DNA from: Escherichia coli
GTDB lineage: Bacteria > Pseudomonadota > Gammaproteobacteria > Enterobacterales > Enterobacteriaceae
Assembly (NCBI RefSeq): GCF_013122565.1
Contig: NZ_CP053258.1
DNA: 64,000 nt
Direction: 5' to 3' (one strand)
The notes under the pieces are model-generated. The model was not told the origin of the DNA. It did not search any database and saw nothing but the letters and a program-made list of their open reading frames with translations. The position numbers were made by a program, and so were the translations under genes. Below, in pieces: positions 2,702-33,607 of this stretch (its first letter is position 1; every line of letters begins with the position of its first letter).

Positions 2702-3409
2702 TCAGGCAAACCAGGCGGTCCAGGCGGCGGAAAGCGGCATTGCCAGAAGGAGTGCTGGAAGCATGTTGACCACCGGGAACATTTTAATGCCACAGATGCG
2801 TAATCCGGTTGCCAGCAGCAATAAACCGCCTACGGCGCTGAAGTCTGCCATCATCGACGGTGTGGTCAGCGGTAATATCAGCGCGGCAGCCCATGCCAGC
2901 GTTAACTGGATGATCAGTAATGGGATACTAATTACCGACACCGCGATGCCCAAAGAGCAGGCGAAGATCATCGCCGTAAAGAAATCAAGAAATGACTTGG
3001 CGATTAAAATACTCGGATCGCCGGTCATCCCTTCGTTCATCGCCCCGAAGATCCCGGTGCCGCTGGCGCAAAACAGGACAATAATCGCCACATAATTCTG
3101 AATAAAAGATTCATGCGCTGGCGTCTTACGTGAGTGACGAAACAGATTTTGTGCTTTGGCGACTGCTGTATTGACACCTTTCTCCAGCAAACAAATTTCG
3201 CCAATTAGAGCGCCAAGTAGCGTAGCTAAAACCATCGCTGGAAGGTTGGCGCATTTCACCACCAGTAAAATACCAATCCCCAGCGATGCCAGACCAAAAA
3301 TAGATGTCATGGAGACGCGGATACGTTCCGGTAAGCGTTGGCTGAGCAGTGCGCCGAGAACGCCACCCAGTAAGACTGCACTAGCGTTGATAAAAGGGCC
3401 GATGACCAC
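2702..3409 (-). CDS. yqgA: DMT-superfamily inner membrane protein YqgA
   Basis: 235-aa hydrophobic ORF; the length and the position between pheV and speC match K-12 yqgA. Confidence 0.8.
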   Translation of the reverse strand: MVIGPFINASAVLLGGVLGALLSQRLPERIRVSMTSIFGLASLGIGILLVVKCANLPAMVLATLLGALIGEICLLEKGVNTAVAKAQNLFRHSRKTPAHESFIQNYVAIIVLFCASGTGIFGAMNEGMTGDPSILIAKSFLDFFTAMIFACSLGIAVSVISIPLLIIQLTLAWAAALILPLTTPSMMADFSAVGGLLLLATGLRICGIKMFPVVNMLPALLLAMPLSAAWTAWFA

Positions 3410-3806
3410 AAGAGTTCCTGTTAACTGTATTGTCTGATTTTCTTATTATGAACTTTTTGCCTTGTTGATGGCTTGTCTGGTCGCAAAGACCTGGCTTGCA
3501 CGCTTTAGCGAAAGGTGCCATGATTGCGCGAATTTTCTCCTCTCTGTACGGAGTTTGCCCGATGCACGCCACCTCCTTACATTCTCTCGCTTATCGCCGT
3601 TTCGCGCGAAACTCTTCTCTTTTTATGCTACTACTCATGCGGTGAAGTTAACGCACGCTCACTGCAGGACAACAGTAAAATCAGAGCGTTTCTGCTTTTA
3701 CTGATGTCTGGCGGTCGGAGCTGGTGACCAGTTTGACCCATATCTCATGGGGCAGGGTTTTCCACCTTGTCCGGTATTCTTACTTCCCCGAAACGGGTTT
3801 GCGCTT

Positions 3807-5942
3807 ATGAAATCAATGAATATTGCCGCCAGTAGTGAACTGGTATCCCGACTTTCTTCTCATCGTCGCGTGGTGGCGTTGGGAGATACTGATTTTACGG
3901 ACGTCGCGGCAGTCGTCATTACCGCTGCGGATAGTCGCAGTGGCATTCTTGCGTTGCTTAAGCGCACCGGTTTTCATCTACCGGTGTTTTTGTATTCCGA
4001 ACATGCTGTTGAATTACCTGCGGGCGTTACGGCGGTAATCAATGGCAACGAGCAGCAGTGGCTGGAGCTGGAATCCGCAGCCTGTCAGTATGAAGAGAAT
4101 TTGCTGCCTCCGTTTTATGACACGCTGACGCAGTACGTTGAGATGGGCAACAGCACCTTTGCTTGCCCTGGGCATCAACATGGTGCGTTTTTTAAAAAGC
4201 ATCCTGCCGGACGCCATTTTTACGATTTCTTTGGTGAGAACGTCTTTCGCGCCGATATGTGTAATGCTGACGTAAAATTGGGCGATCTGCTTATTCATGA
4301 AGGATCGGCGAAAGATGCGCAGAAATTCGCAGCCAAAGTCTTTCATGCCGATAAAACCTATTTTGTGCTGAACGGCACATCGGCAGCGAATAAAGTGGTG
4401 ACGAATGCGCTGTTAACGCGTGGCGATCTGGTGCTCTTCGACCGTAACAACCATAAGTCGAATCATCACGGCGCGTTGATTCAGGCGGGGGCGACGCCGG
4501 TCTATCTGGAAGCTTCACGTAACCCGTTTGGTTTCATTGGCGGTATTGATGCGCACTGTTTTAATGAAGAGTATCTGCGCCAGCAAATTCGCGACGTTGC
4601 GCCAGAAAAAGCCGACCTGCCGCGCCCGTTTCGCCTGGCGATTATTCAGCTGGGAACCTATGACGGCACTGTCTATAACGCCCGTCAGGTGATCGATACC
4701 GTTGGGCATCTGTGTGATTACATTCTGTTTGATTCCGCGTGGGTCGGTTACGAACAGTTTATCCCGATGATGGCGGATAGCTCGCCGCTGCTGTTAGAAC
4801 TTAACGAAAACGATCCGGGGATCTTTGTGACTCAGTCGGTGCACAAACAGCAGGCGGGATTCTCACAGACGTCGCAGATCCATAAAAAAGATAACCATAT
4901 CCGCGGACAGGCGCGTTTTTGCCCGCATAAGCGGTTGAATAATGCCTTTATGCTCCATGCTTCTACCAGCCCGTTCTACCCGCTGTTTGCCGCGCTGGAC
5001 GTTAACGCCAAAATTCATGAAGGGGAGAGTGGGCGTCGGCTGTGGGCTGAGTGCGTTGAGTTGGGTATTGAGTCGCGCAAGGCTATTCTTGCGCGCTGTA
5101 AGCTGTTCCGCCCGTTTATCCCGCCCGTTGTTGATGGCAAATTGTGGCAGGATTATCCGACATCAGTGTTAGCCAGTGACCGCCGTTTTTTCAGTTTTGA
5201 GCCGGGGGCGAAGTGGCACGGCTTTGAAGGATATGCCGCGGATCAGTATTTTGTTGATCCGTGCAAGCTGTTACTCACTACACCAGGTATCGATGCCGAA
5301 ACTGGCGAATATAGCGACTTTGGCGTTCCGGCGACGATTCTGGCGCACTATCTGCGTGAGAACGGCATTGTGCCGGAGAAGTGCGATCTCAACTCCATTC
5401 TGTTCTTATTAACTCCGGCGGAAAGCCACGAGAAGCTGGCACAACTGGTGGCGATGCTGGCGCAATTTGAACAGCATATTGAGGATGACTCGCCGCTGGT
5501 CGAGGTGTTGCCGAGCGTTTATAACAAGTATCCGGTGCGCTATCGCGACTACACCCTGCGCAAGTTGTGTCAGGAGATGCACGATCTGTATGTCAGTTTC
5601 GACGTCAAAGACCTACAAAAAGCGATGTTCCGCCAGCAGAGTTTCCCGTCAGTGGTGATGAACCCCCAGGATGCGCATAGCGCTTATATTCGCGGTGACG
5701 TGGAGTTGGTGCGGATTCGTGATGCCGAAGGGCGAATTGCGGCAGAAGGGGCATTGCCTTATCCACCTGGCGTGCTGTGCGTGGTGCCTGGAGAAGTATG
5801 GGGCGGGGCGGTACAGCGTTATTTCCTTGCACTGGAAGAAGGCGTGAATTTGCTACCAGGATTTTCGCCGGAGCTGCAAGGTGTTTATAGCGAAACCGAT
5901 GCGGATGGCATGAAACGGTTGTACGGTTATGTGTTGAAGTAA
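3807..5942 (+). CDS. speC: Ornithine decarboxylase, constitutive
   Basis: ORF 3747..5942; the translation from the internal ATG at 3807 (MKSMNIAASSELV...) gives the 711-aa SpeC as I recall it. Fold type I PLP decarboxylase. Confidence 0.9.
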   Translation: MKSMNIAASSELVSRLSSHRRVVALGDTDFTDVAAVVITAADSRSGILALLKRTGFHLPVFLYSEHAVELPAGVTAVINGNEQQWLELESAACQYEENLLPPFYDTLTQYVEMGNSTFACPGHQHGAFFKKHPAGRHFYDFFGENVFRADMCNADVKLGDLLIHEGSAKDAQKFAAKVFHADKTYFVLNGTSAANKVVTNALLTRGDLVLFDRNNHKSNHHGALIQAGATPVYLEASRNPFGFIGGIDAHCFNEEYLRQQIRDVAPEKADLPRPFRLAIIQLGTYDGTVYNARQVIDTVGHLCDYILFDSAWVGYEQFIPMMADSSPLLLELNENDPGIFVTQSVHKQQAGFSQTSQIHKKDNHIRGQARFCPHKRLNNAFMLHASTSPFYPLFAALDVNAKIHEGESGRRLWAECVELGIESRKAILARCKLFRPFIPPVVDGKLWQDYPTSVLASDRRFFSFEPGAKWHGFEGYAADQYFVDPCKLLLTTPGIDAETGEYSDFGVPATILAHYLRENGIVPEKCDLNSILFLLTPAESHEKLAQLVAMLAQFEQHIEDDSPLVEVLPSVYNKYPVRYRDYTLRKLCQEMHDLYVSFDVKDLQKAMFRQQSFPSVVMNPQDAHSAYIRGDVELVRIRDAEGRIAAEGALPYPPGVLCVVPGEVWGGAVQRYFLALEEGVNLLPGFSPELQGVYSETDADGMKRLYGYVLK

Positions 5943-5981: not shown

Positions 5982-5991
5982 CTTTGCGTAA

Positions 5992-7248
5992 TTAGTGGCT
6001 AACCGTCTGTGTGCCTGTCGGGACACGAACGTGTTTATATTTGAACATCGCCATGAACGCGAAGGCCAGAACCACGGAGTAACCAGCGAAAATCAACCAT
6101 ACGGTCTGCCAGTCGGTAATGCCGTTTTGGGTGTACATCTCAACAACTTTACCGCTCACGATGCCGCCGAGGATACAGCCGAAGCCGTTAGTCATCATCA
6201 GGAACATCCCCTGCGCACTGGCGCGAATCGCCGGGCTAACTTCTTTTTCGACAAACACCGAACCAGAGATGTTGAAGAAGTCGAACGCACAGCCGTAAAC
6301 AATCATCGACAGAACCAGCAGTACGGTGCCGAACGGAGTCGGGTCGCCGTAAGCAAACAGCGCAAAACGCAGGATCCACGCCACGATACTGATCATCATT
6401 ACGTTCTTAATGCCGTAGCGGCTTAAGAAGAACGGGATGGTCAGAATGAACAGGGTTTCAGAGATCTGCGAAATCGACATGATGATTGACGCATGCTGCA
6501 CAATAAAGCTGCTGGCAAACATCGGATCTTTGTCGAAGCTGTGCAGGAAGGTATTACCGAACATATTGGTAATCTGCAGTTCCGCGCCCAGCAGCATTGA
6601 GAAGATGAAGAAGATGGCCATACGCTTGTTTTTAAACAGCGCGAATGCATCGAGGCCCAGCAGGGTTGTCCAGCTCTGATTCGCTTGCTGTTTAGCAACC
6701 GGAATATGCGGCAGAGTCAGGGTAAACAGAACCAGAATGGCGGAAAGTGCTGCGCCAATATACAGCTGCATGTGGCTTAATTCGAAGCCAGACAGGCTCA
6801 CCACCCACATTGCCATGATAAAGCCGATGGTGCCCCAGATACGGATTGGCGGGAAGTCAGTAACGATATCCATCCCGGCATTTTGCAGGCGATAGTAAGA
6901 GATGGTGTTGATTAACCCAAGCGTTGGCATATAAGCAAACGAGTTAATCAATATCACAAGGAACATCGCTTCCGGCGTCGTGACCTGTGCCGCCATGAAC
7001 AGCGTGATAGCGCCAATGGTGTGGCAAATGGCATATACCCATTTCGCACTTAACCATTTGTCGGCCACAATCCCCAGCAGCGCAGGCATAAAGACCGCGG
7101 CGATACCCAGTGAACTATAAACTGCGCCAATAGAAGCACCGTCAAACTTCAGGGTAACAAACATATAGGAGCCGAGGGTCGTCAGCCAACTTCCCCACAG
7201 ACAGAACTGCAGAAAAGAGAGGATTTTCAGCTGCAGCTTAAGATTCAT
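5992..7248 (-). CDS. nupG: Nucleoside:H+ symporter NupG (MFS)
   Basis: ORF 5992..7296 trimmed to the MNLKLQLKILSF start, giving 418 aa; matches NupG. Confidence 0.9.
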   Translation of the reverse strand: MNLKLQLKILSFLQFCLWGSWLTTLGSYMFVTLKFDGASIGAVYSSLGIAAVFMPALLGIVADKWLSAKWVYAICHTIGAITLFMAAQVTTPEAMFLVILINSFAYMPTLGLINTISYYRLQNAGMDIVTDFPPIRIWGTIGFIMAMWVVSLSGFELSHMQLYIGAALSAILVLFTLTLPHIPVAKQQANQSWTTLLGLDAFALFKNKRMAIFFIFSMLLGAELQITNMFGNTFLHSFDKDPMFASSFIVQHASIIMSISQISETLFILTIPFFLSRYGIKNVMMISIVAWILRFALFAYGDPTPFGTVLLVLSMIVYGCAFDFFNISGSVFVEKEVSPAIRASAQGMFLMMTNGFGCILGGIVSGKVVEMYTQNGITDWQTVWLIFAGYSVVLAFAFMAMFKYKHVRVPTGTQTVSH

Positions 7249-7449
7249 GTTAATTTCCTCACATCGTGATGCGGATGAGTGTTTGAAAAAGCACATTTGA
7301 CCGTGCGAGATGATGGGATTCTATCAACTTCGCGGACTGGTTTTTTGTTACCTGTGGCAAATAATTGCAAACATTCCCAATTTGCAAAACGAAATTGTGA
7401 TGTGGATAACATTTTTGCCCCTGAGCATCGTCAGGGGCGGTTAGTGGAA

Positions 7450-8556
<1,107 letters not shown>

Positions 8557-8593
8557 TTATGCAAGTTGCCGGAGGCGTGCTCCGGCACTGTTT

Positions 8594-8872
<279 letters not shown>

Positions 8873-8896
8873 TCATCCTCTTTATCGACTCACGCG

Positions 8897-9949
8897 CTAA
8901 ACCGGCGCGCCAGTGCGTAACTGCTGTAACAAACGCTCCACGGGAGCCGCCAGGCCAACTGACGGCGGTTGCGCTAAGTTATACCAGAGCGCATTGCCTT
9001 CATCCATGCAGCCGGTGAATGACGACACGGGAAGCCACATAGGCACAATATCTAAGTGGAAATGGCTGAAGGTATGGCGAAACGCGGTCAGTTGCGTCAG
9101 GTTATCGGCAGCAATCTGCCGTTGCGCCAGCCACTGCCGCAAACTTTCTTCGTCGGCAAACTGCGGGAAACAGTATAAACCGCCCCACAATCCGCTCGGC
9201 GGACGCTGCGCCAGCAATACTTCATCTTCGTGCTGTAACAGCAGAAAGTAGCCGGTGCGCTCCGGCAGCGTCTGTTTCGGTTTTTTGCCCGGATAAAGCG
9301 ACCAGCTATTATTGGCGGCGGCAATACATCCGTTTTGTAGCGGACAGAGCGAACATTTCGGCTTCGAGCGCGTACAAATCATCGCGCCCAAATCCATCAT
9401 CGCCTGATTAAACCGTTCCACGCCGACCGCGGGCGTCACCTGCTCGCTCAAACTCCATAATTTATTCTCGACCTCTTTTTTCCCAGGCCAGCCGCTTACA
9501 GCATAGCAGCGTGCCAGCACGCGTTTGACGTTACCGTCGAGAATCGGAAAGTGCTTACCCAGAGAAAGCGAGAGAATCGCGCCTGCGGTGGAACGCCCGA
9601 CGCCCGGTAACGCCGCGACTTCTTCAAAGGTTTCCGGGAATTTACCGCCGTGTAAGGTCGCCACTTGTTGTGCCGCTTTATGCAGATTGCGCGCGCGGGC
9701 GTAATAGCCAAGCCCGGTCCACAAGTGGAGAACTTCGTCCAGCGGCGCATTGGCGAGATCGGTCACCGTTGGGAAGCGCGCCATAAAGCGTTCAAAATAG
9801 GGGATAACGGTCGCAACCTGAGTTTGTTGCAACATCACTTCTGAGAGCCATACTTTGTAGGGCGTCTTGTCAATTTGCCAGGGCAGCGTTTTCCGCCCGT
9901 ATTTATCGTACCAGTCCAGAACCTGGGCTGAAAATTGCGACGCTTGCAT
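8897..9949 (-). CDS. mutY: Adenine DNA glycosylase MutY
   Basis: ORF 8897..9979 trimmed to the [14 protein letters not shown] start (350 aa); HhH-GPD motif and a C-terminal Cys cluster. Confidence 0.9.
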
Positions 9950-10109
9950 GGTCACCGAATTCACTGTTGTTGGGGGCAAGATTGCAGCACAGCGACGGCA
10001 GGGTGTAAACCGGAACTTTCCGCAGCCACGGCCTTATCATGCTTGCATCCGGCAACTAACTTTGGATAATGCCCGTTTTCAGAACACTTTCACAAGCGAC
10101 TAAATCTTT

Positions 10110-10829
10110 ATGAAAAACGACGTCATCTCACCGGAATTTGATGAAAACGGCCGCCCACTGCGCCGTATCCGTAGTTTTGTGCGCCGCCAGGGGCGACTGA
10201 CCAAAGGCCAGGAACATGCGCTGGAAAACTACTGGCCGGTGATGGGCGTTGAGTTCAGCGAAGATATGCTGGATTTCCCTGCGCTTTTTGGCCGTGAAGC
10301 GCCGGTGACGCTTGAGATTGGTTTTGGCATGGGGGCGTCGCTGGTGGCAATGGCTAAAGATCGCCCCGAGCAGGACTTCCTCGGCATTGAAGTGCATTCA
10401 CCGGGCGTTGGTGCGTGCCTGGCTTCTGCGCATGAAGAGGGCTTAAGCAACCTGCGCGTGATGTGTCACGATGCGGTTGAAGTGCTGCATAAAATGATTC
10501 CTGACAATTCATTGCGCATGGTGCAGCTCTTTTTCCCTGACCCGTGGCACAAAGCGCGCCATAATAAACGCCGTATCGTTCAGGTGCCGTTTGCCGAACT
10601 GGTAAAAAGCAAACTGCAGCTGGGGGGCGTATTCCATATGGCGACCGACTGGGAACCTTATGCAGAACATATGCTTGAAGTGATGTCTTCTATTGACGGT
10701 TATAAAAACCTGTCAGAGAGCAATGATTACGTACCGCGTCCGGCATCACGTCCGGTGACGAAATTTGAACAACGTGGTCATCGTCTTGGTCACGGAGTAT
10801 GGGACTTAATGTTCGAGAGGGTGAAATAA
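10110..10829 (+). CDS. trmB: tRNA (guanine46-N7)-methyltransferase
   Basis: 239-aa ORF; SAM-dependent methyltransferase; divergent from mutY as in K-12. Confidence 0.9.
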
Positions 10830-11155
10830 TGGCAAAGAACCGTAGCCGTCGTCTGCGTAAAAAAATGCACATCGACGAATTCCAGGAATTAGGATTTTCG
10901 GTGGCATGGCGATTCCCGGAAGGTACATCGGAAGAACAGATTGATAAAACCGTTGATGATTTTATTAACGAGGTTATCGAACCGAACAAACTGGCCTTTG
11001 ACGGCAGCGGTTATCTGGCTTGGGAAGGTCTGATCTGCATGCAGGAAATCGGCAAATGCACCGAAGAACATCAGGCGATTGTGCGTAAGTGGCTGGAAGA
11101 GCGCAAACTGGAAGAGGTACGCACCAGCGAACTTTTCGACGTTTGGTGGGACTAA
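10829..11155 (+). CDS. yggL: DUF469 protein YggL
   Basis: ORF 10799..11155 trimmed to [18 protein letters not shown] (108 aa); its start overlaps the trmB stop codon. Confidence 0.85.
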   Translation: MAKNRSRRLRKKMHIDEFQELGFSVAWRFPEGTSEEQIDKTVDDFINEVIEPNKLAFDGSGYLAWEGLICMQEIGKCTEEHQAIVRKWLEERKLEEVRTSELFDVWWD

Positions 11156-29264: not shown

Positions 29265-29996
29265 ATGAAAAAATGGAAAGTACGTAGCGCGTTGATAGCA
29301 TTAGTCGTGCTGCTGGCCGGTTGTTCCAGTAATGCGCAGTATAATAGCAGTGCATCGGGCAATGTCGGCACCGCCTGGGGTGGGGATGTGCACTCATCGG
29401 TTCAGGGCGTATCTGCTGAACGAGCCTGGCGCGATCCTGCAGAGATGATCGTTATTAGTTATTCGACTAATGTTCCTTCCGGCTACGACCGCGTTTATAG
29501 CATTCGTATTAACGAACTGGAATATGCTATTCGCGATGGTAATTTTAATTCTCTACCTATTACGCGGGCTTATGATTCATCCAATAATGAACCACGCTAT
29601 ATTGTCCATGCCAGAGTCGGAATGAATTATCAATTATATGTCCGTAATTACAGTCGTAACACCAACTACGAGATCGTTGCTACGGTTGATGGCCTGGATG
29701 TGCTGAACGGCAAGCAAGGTTCGCTGAATAACAACGGCTATATTGTGAATGCCGGAGATTCTTTAGCGATTAAAGGATTCCGCAAAGATAAACATACCGA
29801 AGCGGCTTTTCAGTTCGCCAACGTTGCTGATTCCTACGCCGCCAATTCGGCGCAAGGCGATGTGCGTAATACCGGGGTAATCGGCTTTGCCGCCTTTGAA
29901 TTACAAGGCCCGGCGCAAAACGCGATGCCGACGTGCTCTGGACAAGCCTTTCCGGCGGACAACAATGGCTATGCGCCGCCACCGTGTCGGAAATAG
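29265..29996 (+). CDS. Hypothetical lipoprotein (accessory; no K-12 counterpart recalled)
   Basis: 243-aa ORF with an N-terminal signal peptide and lipobox (LLAGC), AGGGA ribosome-binding site upstream, and its own terminator downstream. No family recognised. Sits in a speA–speB spacer of about 1 kb, against roughly 0.14 kb in K-12 from memory. Confidence 0.55.
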   Translation: MKKWKVRSALIALVVLLAGCSSNAQYNSSASGNVGTAWGGDVHSSVQGVSAERAWRDPAEMIVISYSTNVPSGYDRVYSIRINELEYAIRDGNFNSLPITRAYDSSNNEPRYIVHARVGMNYQLYVRNYSRNTNYEIVATVDGLDVLNGKQGSLNNNGYIVNAGDSLAIKGFRKDKHTEAAFQFANVADSYAANSAQGDVRNTGVIGFAAFELQGPAQNAMPTCSGQAFPADNNGYAPPPCRK

Positions 29997-30131: not shown

Positions 30132-31052
30132 ATGAGCACCTTAGGTCATCAATACGATAACTCACTGGTTTCCAACGCCTTTGGTTTTTTACGCCTGCCG
30201 ATGAACTTCCAGCCGTATGACAGCGATGCTGACTGGGTGATTACTGGCGTGCCGTTCGATATGGCCACTTCTGGTCGTGCGGGTGGTCGTCACGGTCCGG
30301 CAGCTATTCGTCAGGTTTCGACGAATCTGGCCTGGGAACACAACCGCTTCCCGTGGAATTTCGACATGCGTGAGCGCCTGAACGTGGTGGACTGCGGTGA
30401 TCTGGTATATGCCTTCGGCGATGCCCGTGAGATGAGCGAGAAGCTGCAGGCACACGCCGAGAAGTTGCTGGCTGCCGGTAAGCGTATGCTCTCCTTCGGT
30501 GGTGACCACTTTGTTACGCTGCCGCTGCTGCGTGCTCATGCGAAGCATTTCGGCAAAATGGCGCTGGTACACTTTGACGCCCACACCGATACCTACGCGA
30601 ACGGTTGTGAATTTGACCACGGCACCATGTTCTATACCGCGCCGAAAGAAGGTCTGATCGACCCGAATCATTCCGTGCAGATTGGTATTCGTACTGAGTT
30701 CGATAAAGACAACGGCTTTACCGTGCTGGACGCCTGCCAGGTGAACGATCGCAGCGTGGATGACGTTATCGCCCAGGTGAAACAAATTGTGGGTGATATG
30801 CCGGTTTACCTGACCTTTGATATCGACTGCCTGGATCCTGCTTTTGCACCAGGCACCGGTACCCCGGTAATTGGCGGCCTGACCTCCGATCGCGCTATTA
30901 AACTGGTACGCGGCCTGAAAGATCTCAACATCGTTGGGATGGACGTAGTGGAAGTGGCTCCGGCATACGATCAGTCGGAAATCACCGCTCTGGCTGCGGC
31001 GACGCTGGCGCTGGAGATGCTGTATATTCAGGCGGCGAAAAAGGGCGAGTAA
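30132..31052 (+). CDS. speB: Agmatinase
   Basis: 306-aa ORF of the arginase/ureohydrolase family (conserved His/Asp Mn-binding residues, e.g. GGDHF...DAHTD). Confidence 0.9.
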
Positions 31053-31200
31053 GTCATCTGCCTGGTTGAATTTTTTACACAGTCCCTTGTCTGGCACAAG
31101 GGACTTATCATTTAAAACCTATCCTGTTAATTAAGTCATCTTACCCTGACTGCTGTTTTTTAATGGATTGTTATTATCGCGTTTTTAATGGAATAAATAG

Positions 31201-32763
31201 ATGGAACGCACTCTTCCCTGGAAGCCTCTTCTTTGTTTGTTATTTCTTTTATCAACTGGCTGCGATAGAGCAGAAAAACAGAAAATTGCCGCACAGCTGC
31301 AACAAGACAAAGAAGCTATTTCCTCTGTCGTCAAAAAGAGTTATCGCGCATTATGTGGCCCTGAGTTTGTCACCAGCATAGATTCGCACGATCGCCTTGC
31401 GGAAATGCAGCAAGTATTTACGCCTGCTTTAATGGAGCCTGTACTGAAATACTGGCAAGAGTCACCCAAAACGTGTAAACGACGTTTCCCCAGTTATAGC
31501 GATCCTTCAGCGACCTTCGTCGAAGGCGACAAGGCGCAGATTGGTGCTTTTTTTGGTCACCAATCTGATATTGATATTCCAATGGAGTTAATCCGGCAAG
31601 GGGATGGTAAATGGAAGATTGCTGCGATTGATATTGCATCGTTACACGAGTTTGAAAAAAACGGTCGGGTTACTGATGAGGTGCAGAAAAAAATAGATTT
31701 GCTTAAAAAACGCTCATTCAAGCAACATAGGGATTCCCCTGTGCTGACGAGGACCGCGCCAGAGCGGGTCAGTAAGTCCCCTTTGACATCGATGGAGCAA
31801 ACAGTTACGGAGCAAGACTCTTCCTGGCTGGATGTCTTACTGACAATAGGCAAATATGCCCTTTATCTGGTAGCGATAATACTTATTCTCGCCTTGGTGG
31901 CTGTTTTGTGGATTGGTTATGGCCTGGTGTTCGCCGGACATCGCCTTTTCAAAGCATCCTGTAGAGATCCCTCAATTCAAAAAATTCCTGTGGCTGAACG
32001 TTGGGCAATGGCAGTCGGCGCGCCTTATGCCATTGCGGGTAACAATCACTGGGCGCGACGAGTCGTTAATGATGATTCCGAGGAAGCAGAGAATGATTGC
32101 AAAAGTGAAGTTGAGTCCCTTGCTGACATGTGGGGCGTCTTTGATCGGGATTCGTTACTTGAGCAACTCTTAGCTTTGTTTGTTGCAGGGCATCGTTCAG
32201 TTTATGAAGAACAGATCAAAAACGATAGCGAAATGCCGGATGCTGAATATCGCGCGTTCGCTCAGCAATTAGCCCAGAACGCGAAATCAAGTAGCGAAGC
32301 GAAAGAGCGTTTGTGGCAGCTACAGATGGTCAGAAAAAATCGACGTAAAATATGCGATATAGATTTTTGTGCCTGGGATATGGTGCGTTTTGTCATGCTA
32401 TGTAATAGCGGGGCGCAAGTGGGATACATTACCCAGCGTGAAATGGTCGATTTTTCGATGCTGGCAGCCAGACGCGTACAGCAACATTACAGAAGCTGGC
32501 GCGAATTGGCCGGGCATTTTTTGCTGGCCCGTTGGTACTGGAAAGCAACGGATAAACGGCACCTGATTACCCATATTCTTTTTAAGAAAGCCATTACATC
32601 TTTATTAAAAGAGCAGGGGAGTCCGTGGCGTACTTTACCCTGGGATACTCCATTACCTGAAGGAACAGAGACGGCTTTTGCCTGGGCTTGTGGCGTAAGC
32701 ACTGCCGATGTAGTAGAGGTGCGATTGGATACACCAGATAAAGCAATCTACGAAGCGAATTGA
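31201..32763 (+). CDS. Hypothetical 520-aa lipoprotein/membrane protein with a possible DUF1266-like C-terminal domain (accessory)
   Basis: N-terminal signal peptide with lipobox (LLSTGC), a roughly 190-aa soluble region, a long hydrophobic segment (LDVLLTIGKYALYLVAIILILALVAVLWIGYGLVFAG), then a roughly 280-aa C-terminal region with CAWDMVRF and LLARWYW motifs that remind me of DUF1266 (YbeR/YbeU-type). The family call is from memory only. Confidence 0.5.
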   Translation: MERTLPWKPLLCLLFLLSTGCDRAEKQKIAAQLQQDKEAISSVVKKSYRALCGPEFVTSIDSHDRLAEMQQVFTPALMEPVLKYWQESPKTCKRRFPSYSDPSATFVEGDKAQIGAFFGHQSDIDIPMELIRQGDGKWKIAAIDIASLHEFEKNGRVTDEVQKKIDLLKKRSFKQHRDSPVLTRTAPERVSKSPLTSMEQTVTEQDSSWLDVLLTIGKYALYLVAIILILALVAVLWIGYGLVFAGHRLFKASCRDPSIQKIPVAERWAMAVGAPYAIAGNNHWARRVVNDDSEEAENDCKSEVESLADMWGVFDRDSLLEQLLALFVAGHRSVYEEQIKNDSEMPDAEYRAFAQQLAQNAKSSSEAKERLWQLQMVRKNRRKICDIDFCAWDMVRFVMLCNSGAQVGYITQREMVDFSMLAARRVQQHYRSWRELAGHFLLARWYWKATDKRHLITHILFKKAITSLLKEQGSPWRTLPWDTPLPEGTETAFAWACGVSTADVVEVRLDTPDKAIYEAN

Positions 32764-32816
32764 TGCTCCAAATGATTGAACTTGTTTAATGACTGTGGCC
32801 GGCTCTGAATGAAAAT

Positions 32817-32842
32817 TTCTCCGACATTCCTGTCGGAGAAAT
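32817..32842. terminator. Hairpin between the convergent 520-aa gene and loiP
   Basis: TTTCTCCGAC-ATTCCTG-TCGGAGAAA inverted repeat. Confidence 0.35.
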
Positions 32843-32848
32843 ATGAAA

Positions 32849-33607
32849 TTACTTAACCCCATCCGCGCTCATGCGATCGCGAATATGCTGGGCGCGTTCG
32901 GCGGATGCCGGGTGGTCGTCAAACATTGAGCTTTGACGGCCTTCTTCCAGCTTCGCCAGTTTTTCAAAGCTGGTGGCAAGACCTGCCGGGCTGATGCCGC
33001 GTTGGCGCAGAAGATCGTAAGAATAATCATCGGCTTCTGCTTCCTGGCGCTGGGAGAATTGCGAATTGACTAATTTCTCGCCCAGATCACCAAGTTGTGA
33101 TTGAGATAAACTGCCGACAATCCCGCCCGCAGAGGCCGCAGCTACTCGCACGGCATTTGTACCAAGCGCTACCTGCATCCCTTTCTTCACATGGCCTAAC
33201 GCCACGTGCCCCATTTCGTGACCGATCACCGCTTCGACTTCGTTATCCGTCATCATATCCATCAGCCCGCTATAGACGCGGATACAGCCGTTAGCCATTG
33301 CAAAGGCGTTCACATCCTTCGCCATATACACTTTGTAATTTACCGGCTGACCGTTGATATTGTTGCCTAGCGCATTGGCAATAGTTGTCAGACGTTTAGC
33401 ATATTCGCTATTGGCTGGCGCAATCGTCGCCTTGCTGTCCATCTCCTGACATGCCTGATCGCTCAGGGCTTTCACCTGCGCATCACTCAAACTGTAAGCC
33501 TGAAAAGCTTCCGCTCCTGATGAAAGCAGTCCGTTGGAGTCCATATTCTGGCAACCGGTCAGTACCGTTGCCACGCTCATTGCTACCAATAAGGCGCGAA
33601 TTTTCAT
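32849..33607 (-). CDS. loiP: Outer-membrane metalloprotease LoiP (M48 family)
   Basis: ORF 32849..33826 trimmed to MKIRALLVAMSVATVLTGC (252 aa); HEMGH zinc motif. Confidence 0.85.
   Translation of the reverse strand: MKIRALLVAMSVATVLTGCQNMDSNGLLSSGAEAFQAYSLSDAQVKALSDQACQEMDSKATIAPANSEYAKRLTTIANALGNNINGQPVNYKVYMAKDVNAFAMANGCIRVYSGLMDMMTDNEVEAVIGHEMGHVALGHVKKGMQVALGTNAVRVAAASAGGIVGSLSQSQLGDLGEKLVNSQFSQRQEAEADDYSYDLLRQRGISPAGLATSFEKLAKLEEGRQSSMFDDHPASAERAQHIRDRMSADGVK

Follow-up and report, generated by a model that had tools for sequence, protein, structure and literature searches.

An accessory gene fills the gap between speB and loiP

Within a 64,000-nucleotide stretch of Escherichia coli DNA (NCBI RefSeq assembly GCF_013122565.1, contig NZ_CP053258.1; hereafter the window), the gap between the convergent genes speB and loiP is filled by a single open reading frame (ORF) that encodes a 520-amino-acid (aa) protein, a predicted lipoprotein that joins a domain of NTF2-like fold, one predicted transmembrane (TM) helix and a C-terminal DUF1266 domain. 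The chromosomal setting is the metK-speA-speB-loiP-tkt region of E. coli. A preliminary description, made from the letters of the window alone, had singled out this one ORF and had put the spacer that holds it at about 1.8 kb, against about 0.23 kb in K-12. Measured from stop codon to stop codon, the spacer is 1,797 bp in the window and 205 bp in the K-12 derivative W3110-P. The W3110-P spacer consists throughout of repetitive extragenic palindromic (REP)-type elements without any similarity to the spacer of the window, and on both sides the two alleles begin to diverge exactly at the stop codons of speB and loiP. The gene is thus absent from this site in K-12, where only REP elements are found; the K-12 proteins YbeR and YbeU are paralogues with 21–24% identity.

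The ORF is a real and intact gene. No in-frame start was found upstream of its ATG, and it is collinear with three 520-aa RefSeq proteins (WP_023141973.1, WP_000442535.1 and WP_000442530.1), as one gene rather than two genes or a pseudogene. A chance ORF is ruled out by the strength of the Pfam match (E = 1.3e-29), by the existence of orthologues in other genera and by a ratio of nonsynonymous to synonymous substitution rates (dN/dS) well below 1. On each of the three points on which the preliminary description could have failed, namely the DUF1266 match, the integrity of the gene and its absence from K-12, the outcome was in its favour. The gene is already catalogued in generic terms: other E. 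coli genomes have a RefSeq coding sequence of the identical length of 1,563 nt under the name “DUF1266 domain-containing protein” (WP_023141973.1 is one), and an entry in UniProt and the AlphaFold Database (AFDB), A0A229ANM8, is 98% identical to the protein of the window. The new part is its anatomy.

The GC content of the gene is 46.8%, with 44% at third codon positions (GC3), compared with 55% and 63% in speB, and these low values suggest a foreign origin. That this is an intact accessory gene with a horizontally acquired look is well supported. The gap itself (window 31053-32848) exists in several states: the 205-bp REP spacer of the K-12 type, REP arrays of ~430 bp, the DUF1266 gene, and a 7.6-kb filling that proves to be a D-glucosaminate operon (dagR, phosphotransferase system IIABCD genes, dgaE and dagF), which is present in both of the ‘two-place’ genomes that we opened. 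In ~565 of 5,426 genomes, speB and loiP lie too far apart to be joined in our search. No homology was found between the alternative fillings (REP arrays, DUF1266 gene and operon), and the gap is a multi-allelic recombination hot spot, in which three or more kinds of content occur. An origin of the gene in a mobile element was considered and set aside, as direct or inverted repeats do not flank it and its flanks are unrelated to the other alleles of the site.

Architecture of the protein

The preliminary description had proposed a lipobox signal, a soluble domain, a hydrophobic segment of roughly 35 residues and a C-terminal domain, and this layout was borne out in full; the soluble domain can now be assigned to the NTF2-like fold and the segment is predicted to be a single TM helix. 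At the N-terminus, a PROSITE-type lipoprotein pattern ends at Cys21, which is followed by Asp22, and this Cys-Asp lipobox is invariant in our protein and in every orthologue, including that of Leminorella. An aspartate at position +2 is a Lol-avoidance signal that keeps a lipoprotein in the inner membrane. The protein is therefore a predicted substrate of signal peptidase II, putatively lipidated at Cys21 and retained in the inner membrane.

The domain that follows adopts an NTF2-like fold, an alpha+beta cone, in two structure models with a predicted local distance difference test score (pLDDT) of 87.5 each. The pair Cys52/Cys92, which the full-length orthologues have kept, probably forms a disulfide in the periplasm. 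Residues 1–305 gave no Pfam match even at E ≤ 10 and no NCBIfam match, and we found no membership in families of the SnoaL or DUF4878 type. Sequence homologues of this domain were not found outside its own orthologue group, nor were stand-alone homologues found outside the E. coli group. The ectodomain thus belongs to the NTF2-like fold class yet falls in no described sequence family. The linker behind it has pLDDT below 50 at residues 191–205 and only 0–15% identity in the orthologues from other genera.

The hydrophobic segment spans residues ~210–247, with a Kyte-Doolittle mean over 19 residues of up to 3.07, and the TM helix is assigned to residues 208–246, of which the structure model renders 208–243 as one uninterrupted helix; across the helix the net charge flips from -3 before to +3 after. 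Because a cleaved lipoprotein signal is followed by a single TM helix, the NTF2-like domain is predicted to be periplasmic and the DUF1266 domain cytoplasmic. Relatives of the protein are consistent with this orientation. Most of the nearest DUF1266 relatives are proteins of 300–350 aa with an N-terminal TM helix, an Arg/Lys cluster and then DUF1266; in 60 such TM-anchored relatives, Lys plus Arg average 1.08 in the 15 residues before the helix and 3.73 in those after it, with the count higher after the helix in 45 of the 60 and lower in 10. By the positive-inside rule, these proteins would independently place DUF1266 in the cytoplasm, and the soluble YbeR and YbeU have no signal peptide. The shared arrangement of helix and basic cluster makes a membrane-proximal cytoplasmic DUF1266 domain appear to be the norm for this branch. 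We infer the lipidation, the inner-membrane retention, the disulfide and the outside/inside arrangement from the sequence and the models, and we hold the architecture and topology as a whole with high confidence.

The preliminary description had also suggested, more cautiously, a DUF1266-like domain, and had given the accession PF06889 correctly. The match (score 104) covers model positions 1–175 of 175 over residues 306–481, and nothing else in Pfam matches the protein. In the structure model, residues ~262–495 form an all-helical domain with pLDDT mostly above 90, and matches to family members begin at about profile position 265 (260–270); the true domain therefore starts ~40 residues ahead of the Pfam boundary, near residue 262, with the ERWAMAVGAPYAI helix. 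Cys254 is invariant among the orthologues. Across 106 aligned family sequences, W311, D393, R396 and W433 are invariant, and L307, G330, H331, W392, G404, R444, W447, P475 and W481 are at least 90% conserved; the AWD and LARWYW motifs that the preliminary description had named lie at residues 391–393 and 442–447. All of the best 50 Foldseek matches in AFDB50 have probability 1.00, and nearly all are annotated as DUF1266, PF06889 or YbeU. By every test that we ran, the protein is a member of the DUF1266 family.

Table 1. Features of the speB–loiP region in the window and predicted parts of the encoded protein
Feature	Position in window	Strand	Details
DUF1266 lipoprotein gene	31201..32763	+	ATG 31201, stop 32761-32763; 520 codons + stop, 1,563 nt
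Lipoprotein signal peptide, residues 1-21	31201..31263	+	n-region with R3 and K8; hydrophobic core; lipobox L-S-T-G-C21
NTF2-like alpha+beta domain, residues 22-180	31264..31740	+	predicted periplasmic; no Pfam family
Linker, residues 181-207	31741..31821	+	low-confidence, poorly conserved, disordered
Single transmembrane helix, residues 208-246	31822..31938	+	predicted from hydropathy peak and model
All-alpha DUF1266 domain near the membrane, residues 247-481	31939..32643	+	predicted cytoplasmic; Pfam 306-481
C-terminal tail, residues 482-520	32644..32760	+	acidic, short helices; last 13 residues disordered
speB	30132-31052	+	upstream neighbour of the DUF1266 gene
Hairpin and T-rich tract directly 3′ of the speB stop	31081..31105	+	terminator-like site
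Perfect 12-bp inverted repeat between the convergent DUF1266 gene and loiP	32815..32842		terminator-like, T-run on the minus strand
loiP	stop at 32849	-	downstream convergent neighbour of the DUF1266 gene

Distribution, selection and disrupted alleles

The gene is present in 210 of 5,426 complete E. coli genomes (3.9%), always at the speB–loiP site, and the window allele is 95.8–98.6% identical to the copies in these carriers. The cluster of the 520-aa protein holds 675 member sequences. Beyond E. coli the full architecture is hard to find: a word-indexed search of 5.8 billion proteins returned 11 clusters, and a profile search of 1.84 billion cluster representatives gave only 2 representatives outside E. 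coli with full-length coverage. Scanning one genome per species (100,044 species) gave only Klebsiella spallanzanii (51% identity), Leminorella grimontii and a distant Actinomyces protein, to which Foldseek added an orthologue in Hafnia alvei (39% identity). The full architecture is thus very rare, and beyond E. coli the orthologues are limited to Klebsiella spallanzanii, Hafnia and Leminorella.

The Leminorella grimontii orthologue (396 aa; 7001-8191 of its locus) has kept the lipobox, the TM helix and DUF1266 and has lost the NTF2-like domain, which indicates that the conserved core can do without the ectodomain. Some 1.7 kb downstream of this orthologue there is a ccdA/ccdB toxin-antitoxin pair. 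The neighbours of the orthologues differ from locus to locus: speB and loiP in E. coli, marC and a major facilitator superfamily transporter at the Klebsiella-type locus, and adh and selA at the Leminorella locus and at that of orthologue P0009. The TM-anchored relatives lie beside uvrB and yvcK in Proteus and elsewhere at sites adjacent to integrase or transposase genes. Because the gene always stands alone and its neighbours are never conserved, the protein is expected to act by itself or with partners encoded in the core genome.

The E. coli alleles are under purifying selection, judging from whole-gene dN/dS of 0.14–0.38 between them. By part, the ratio is 0.15–0.28 over the TM helix and DUF1266, compared with 0.37–0.83 over the NTF2-like domain (these being based on small counts), and the orthologues from other genera show the same gradient, with 57–71% identity in the DUF1266 core and 27–42% in the NTF2-like domain. 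The gene has nonetheless been disrupted at least four or five times independently across E. coli lineages. In the EC9 lineage (locus 3145-4707) there is a stop at codon 90, and RefSeq splits the allele into ORFs of 89 aa and 393 aa; in another allele the protein ends at residue 208, just before Trp209, in yet another at residue 461, and frameshifts occur near codons 170 and 335. Read together, these sequences indicate a gene that is functional where intact, but dispensable.

A candidate second copy of the gene in E. coli IH5 (NZ_CP168949.1, 5127797-5142443), beside an integrase gene and IS66, was examined and rejected. It is a 647-bp fragment in a patchwork of dozens of ~600-bp pieces of unrelated genes, all of them flagged as partial pseudogenes, and it is almost certainly an assembly artefact in a ‘complete’ genome rather than a second locus.

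Comparison with known proteins

DUF1266 is a large family to which no function has been assigned, and in K-12 its two copies are neighbours of the Hsp70 system that is least understood in E. coli. We counted 1,534 DUF1266 clusters at E ≤ 0.001 in the profile search of cluster representatives. Domain fusions were tried as a clue to function and abandoned: in 42 long DUF1266 proteins, the only additional domains are tetratricopeptide (TPR) repeats in four and a beta-helix in one. Neighbourhood checks on soluble DUF1266 relatives showed no recurrent partner. In the literature, the sole mention of DUF1266 that we found is a report that a DUF1266 locus of strain 042 is up ~300-fold in an hns mutant (PMC7582179); judged from its locus-tag number, this is probably the ybeR/ybeU region rather than the gene in the window. 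Searches on PF06889, ybeU and ybeR gave nothing functional.

YbeR and YbeU share PF06889 with our protein, together with the motifs L..WG(I/V)..RD.LL, GH, AWD.VR, SW and (G/A)R.YW. They are 235-aa soluble proteins that lack a signal peptide and a TM helix, whereas the protein of the window is, by prediction, membrane-anchored and equipped with a further domain in the periplasm. The ybeR and ybeU genes overlap djlB and djlC next to hscC; no chaperone gene lies near ours. Closer to our protein are TM-anchored DUF1266 proteins of 300–350 aa from Proteus mirabilis, Actinomyces johnsonii, Photorhabdus and Xenorhabdus, its nearest relatives outside the orthologues at 25–34% identity. They share the TM helix, a basic juxtamembrane stretch, the H/E-x-W-A-L-A helix and DUF1266, and are likewise encoded by lone genes, but they have neither a lipoprotein signal nor an NTF2-like domain, the part outside the membrane being only a few residues long.

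The layout of a bitopic protein with an extracytoplasmic NTF2-like domain is also found in VirB8/CagV, TraM, the anti-sigma factor RsgI9 and the plastid division proteins ARC6/PARC6. Here the likeness is one of fold and layout only: there is no detectable sequence relation, the orientation and the partner domains differ, and none of them is a lipoprotein or contains DUF1266. Double anchoring by a lipid and by protein segments is known, though uncommon; CyoA, subunit II of cytochrome bo3, has a lipid-modified N-terminal cysteine and downstream TM helices in the inner membrane, and is otherwise unrelated to our protein in fold and function. The protein is therefore best described as an architectural variant within a known, uncharacterised family, one that adds a lipid-anchored ectodomain to a TM-DUF1266 module. 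This rare fusion is predicted to place DUF1266 at the cytoplasmic face of the inner membrane, and the closest subfamily is generally membrane-tethered, so that the layout provides a testable constraint on where DUF1266 acts.

A possible adaptor at the inner membrane, and the alternatives

The architecture suggests how such a protein might work. Processing by signal peptidase II would leave Cys21 lipidated, and Asp22 would hold the protein in the inner membrane; the NTF2-like domain would then lie in the periplasm, tethered at both ends, and a flexible linker would lead through the single TM helix to DUF1266 (~262–495) on the cytoplasmic face, near the membrane. With low confidence, we propose that the protein is a transmembrane adaptor or sensor and not an enzyme. 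The fast-evolving ectodomain would bind a periplasmic ligand or protein and serve as an input or localisation module, and the DUF1266 domain, which is strongly conserved, would contact a partner on the cytoplasmic side of the membrane. The most promising such partner would be the specialised Hsp70 system of HscC with the tail-anchored J-proteins DjlB and DjlC, for which DUF1266 might be an adaptor, a client or a regulator. Taken together, the architecture and the adaptor function form a tentative reading, to which we give somewhat less than an even chance, and the particular link to HscC and its J-proteins, which is drawn by analogy, is doubtful.

That analogy comes from gene order elsewhere in the family. 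In K-12, ybeR–djlB and ybeU–djlC are overlapping gene pairs that lie beside hscC and two genes for Sel1-repeat proteins. On plasmid pEP2 of Erwinia persicina, the gene for a 235-aa DUF1266 protein has a 4-nt overlap with that for an 887-aa protein. This larger protein carries a DnaJ domain at its N-terminus and a weak match to DUF805 at its C-terminus, and HscC is encoded convergently alongside (region 5986-11085), so that the trio is the same as ybeU-djlC-hscC in K-12. Pairing with membrane-anchored J-proteins and HscC is the only recurrent genomic clue for DUF1266. The proposed targets of HscC are cytosolic domains of membrane proteins (PMC8215388). Mutants in hscC and djlBC are reported to be sensitive to Cd2+.

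Several observations weigh against an adaptor of this kind. No J-domain or Hsp70 gene lies beside the gene in the window, beside the orthologues that we examined or beside the TM-anchored relatives; the genes examined are all single and lie between unrelated housekeeping or mobile genes. The adjacency of a J-domain gene near an hscC-type Hsp70 gene is found only with the soluble type, and by this our protein is set apart from the J-protein-linked type of YbeR and YbeU. As its DUF1266 domain is only 21–24% identical to theirs, a shared partner is not assured. The conserved His, Asp, Arg and Trp residues of DUF1266 could equally mark a catalytic or ligand-binding site. The lipidation, the disulfide and the topology on which the scheme builds are predictions, and the recurrence of truncations in the population shows that the gene is dispensable.

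Other readings of the same data deserve consideration. The topology might be different, with the ~38-residue hydrophobic stretch folding as a helical hairpin and DUF1266 also lying in the periplasm. The stretch is indeed longer than a minimal TM helix needs to be, and Hafnia-type sequences have a Gly-Thr-Gly in its middle; against this, the model gives a single unbroken helix, the uncharged core between K and R is ~21 residues in orthologue P0010, positive charges are concentrated behind the helix, a signal peptide is absent from YbeR and YbeU, and the TM-anchored relatives obey the positive-inside rule with DUF1266 inside. Together these make a hairpin highly improbable. A different kind of doubt is whether the gene still does anything at all in E. 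coli, or is a silent, decaying remnant of an old horizontal acquisition that is now useless there and is being lost. Its presence in few genomes, its repeated independent disruption, its low GC and the absence of a recognisable sigma-70 promoter all fit such decay, but the copy in the window is intact, selection has acted on its alleles and most strongly on the TM helix and DUF1266, the cluster of the 520-aa protein is large, and the Klebsiella and Hafnia orthologues, at 40–51% identity, have kept the Cys-Asp lipobox and many DUF1266 residues; we regard a mere remnant as rather improbable.

As the main rival to the adaptor reading, the protein might be an orphan immunity protein, a stand-alone protective cassette whose NTF2-like domain, DUF1266 domain or both neutralise a toxin delivered by a competitor. 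The gene is patchy in occurrence, AT-rich and single, its outward-facing domain evolves fast, and Photorhabdus, Xenorhabdus, Proteus and Providencia, genera in which polymorphic toxins abound, commonly have close DUF1266 relatives. On a plasmid of Bacteroides finegoldii (NZ_OY725934.1, 5647-7462), two tandem DUF1266 genes lie among genes whose products are annotated as Imm5 immunity, PoNe immunity and ankyrin-repeat proteins, an array that hints at a possible immunity role for some members of DUF1266. This is one locus, however, with a distant homologue of ~23% identity, and it is the only immunity array that we found; no toxin, Rhs, VgrG or contact-dependent inhibition (CDI) genes lie near the gene in the window or its orthologues, no immunity family matched in Pfam or NCBIfam, and the immunity protein Tai3 is far from the best NTF2-like match. 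Moreover, it is the cytoplasmic domain and not the exposed one that is most conserved, and an immunity role appears quite unlikely. A role in anti-phage defence was considered and rejected, since no PADLOC-DB family matched at E ≤ 0.1 and there was no meaningful PHROG match; a phage collection held no homologues, a plasmid collection gave distant DUF1266 matches only, and no link of hscC to anti-phage defence was found in the literature.

Going beyond the adaptor reading, the two halves of the protein may be coupled across the envelope. The NTF2-like domain, doubly tethered in the periplasm, would sense a foreign protein or a cue from the envelope, and DUF1266 would recruit or regulate HscC with DjlB or DjlC; in a variant of this idea, the protein would confer immunity in two compartments, its two domains protecting the two sides of the inner membrane. 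We consider such coupling decidedly unlikely. If true, it would assign a function to DUF1266 for the first time and give HscC a physiological client or adaptor.

Transcription signals and further observations

The hairpin directly behind speB is likely its terminator, and given this terminator the DUF1266 gene is probably transcribed from a promoter of its own in the AT-rich segment 31106-31200. No consensus sigma-70 promoter was found ahead of the gene, and the promoter is placed there by inference. The inverted repeat at the other end of the gene has a T-run on the minus strand and reads as the terminator of loiP; it probably also ends transcription of the DUF1266 gene.

The protein (window 31201-32760) also has a weak NCBIfam match to NF008480 (PRK11380; E = 8.9e-5, 22 bits against a cutoff of 386 bits), a 353-aa ‘hypothetical protein’ equivalog whose profile positions 168–316 align to the DUF1266 region. 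Foldseek also aligned a 366-aa Salmonella fragment (A0A5Y3M846) along most of the fragment's length. These two matches raise the possibility of a related family in enterobacteria whose members have an N-terminal extension.

A second putative lipoprotein gene lies on the other side of speB. This 243-aa ORF (window 29265-29996, plus strand), between speA and speB, has a canonical lipobox, LLAG-C20, and goes in RefSeq by the names ‘hypothetical protein’, ‘lipoprotein’ and ‘membrane protein’; nothing in Pfam matches it, and NCBIfam and PADLOC gave no significant match. It was found in 3,550 of the 5,426 complete E. coli genomes and is missing from O103:H2 FWSEC0007, a carrier of the DUF1266 gene; the two extra genes flanking speB therefore vary independently.

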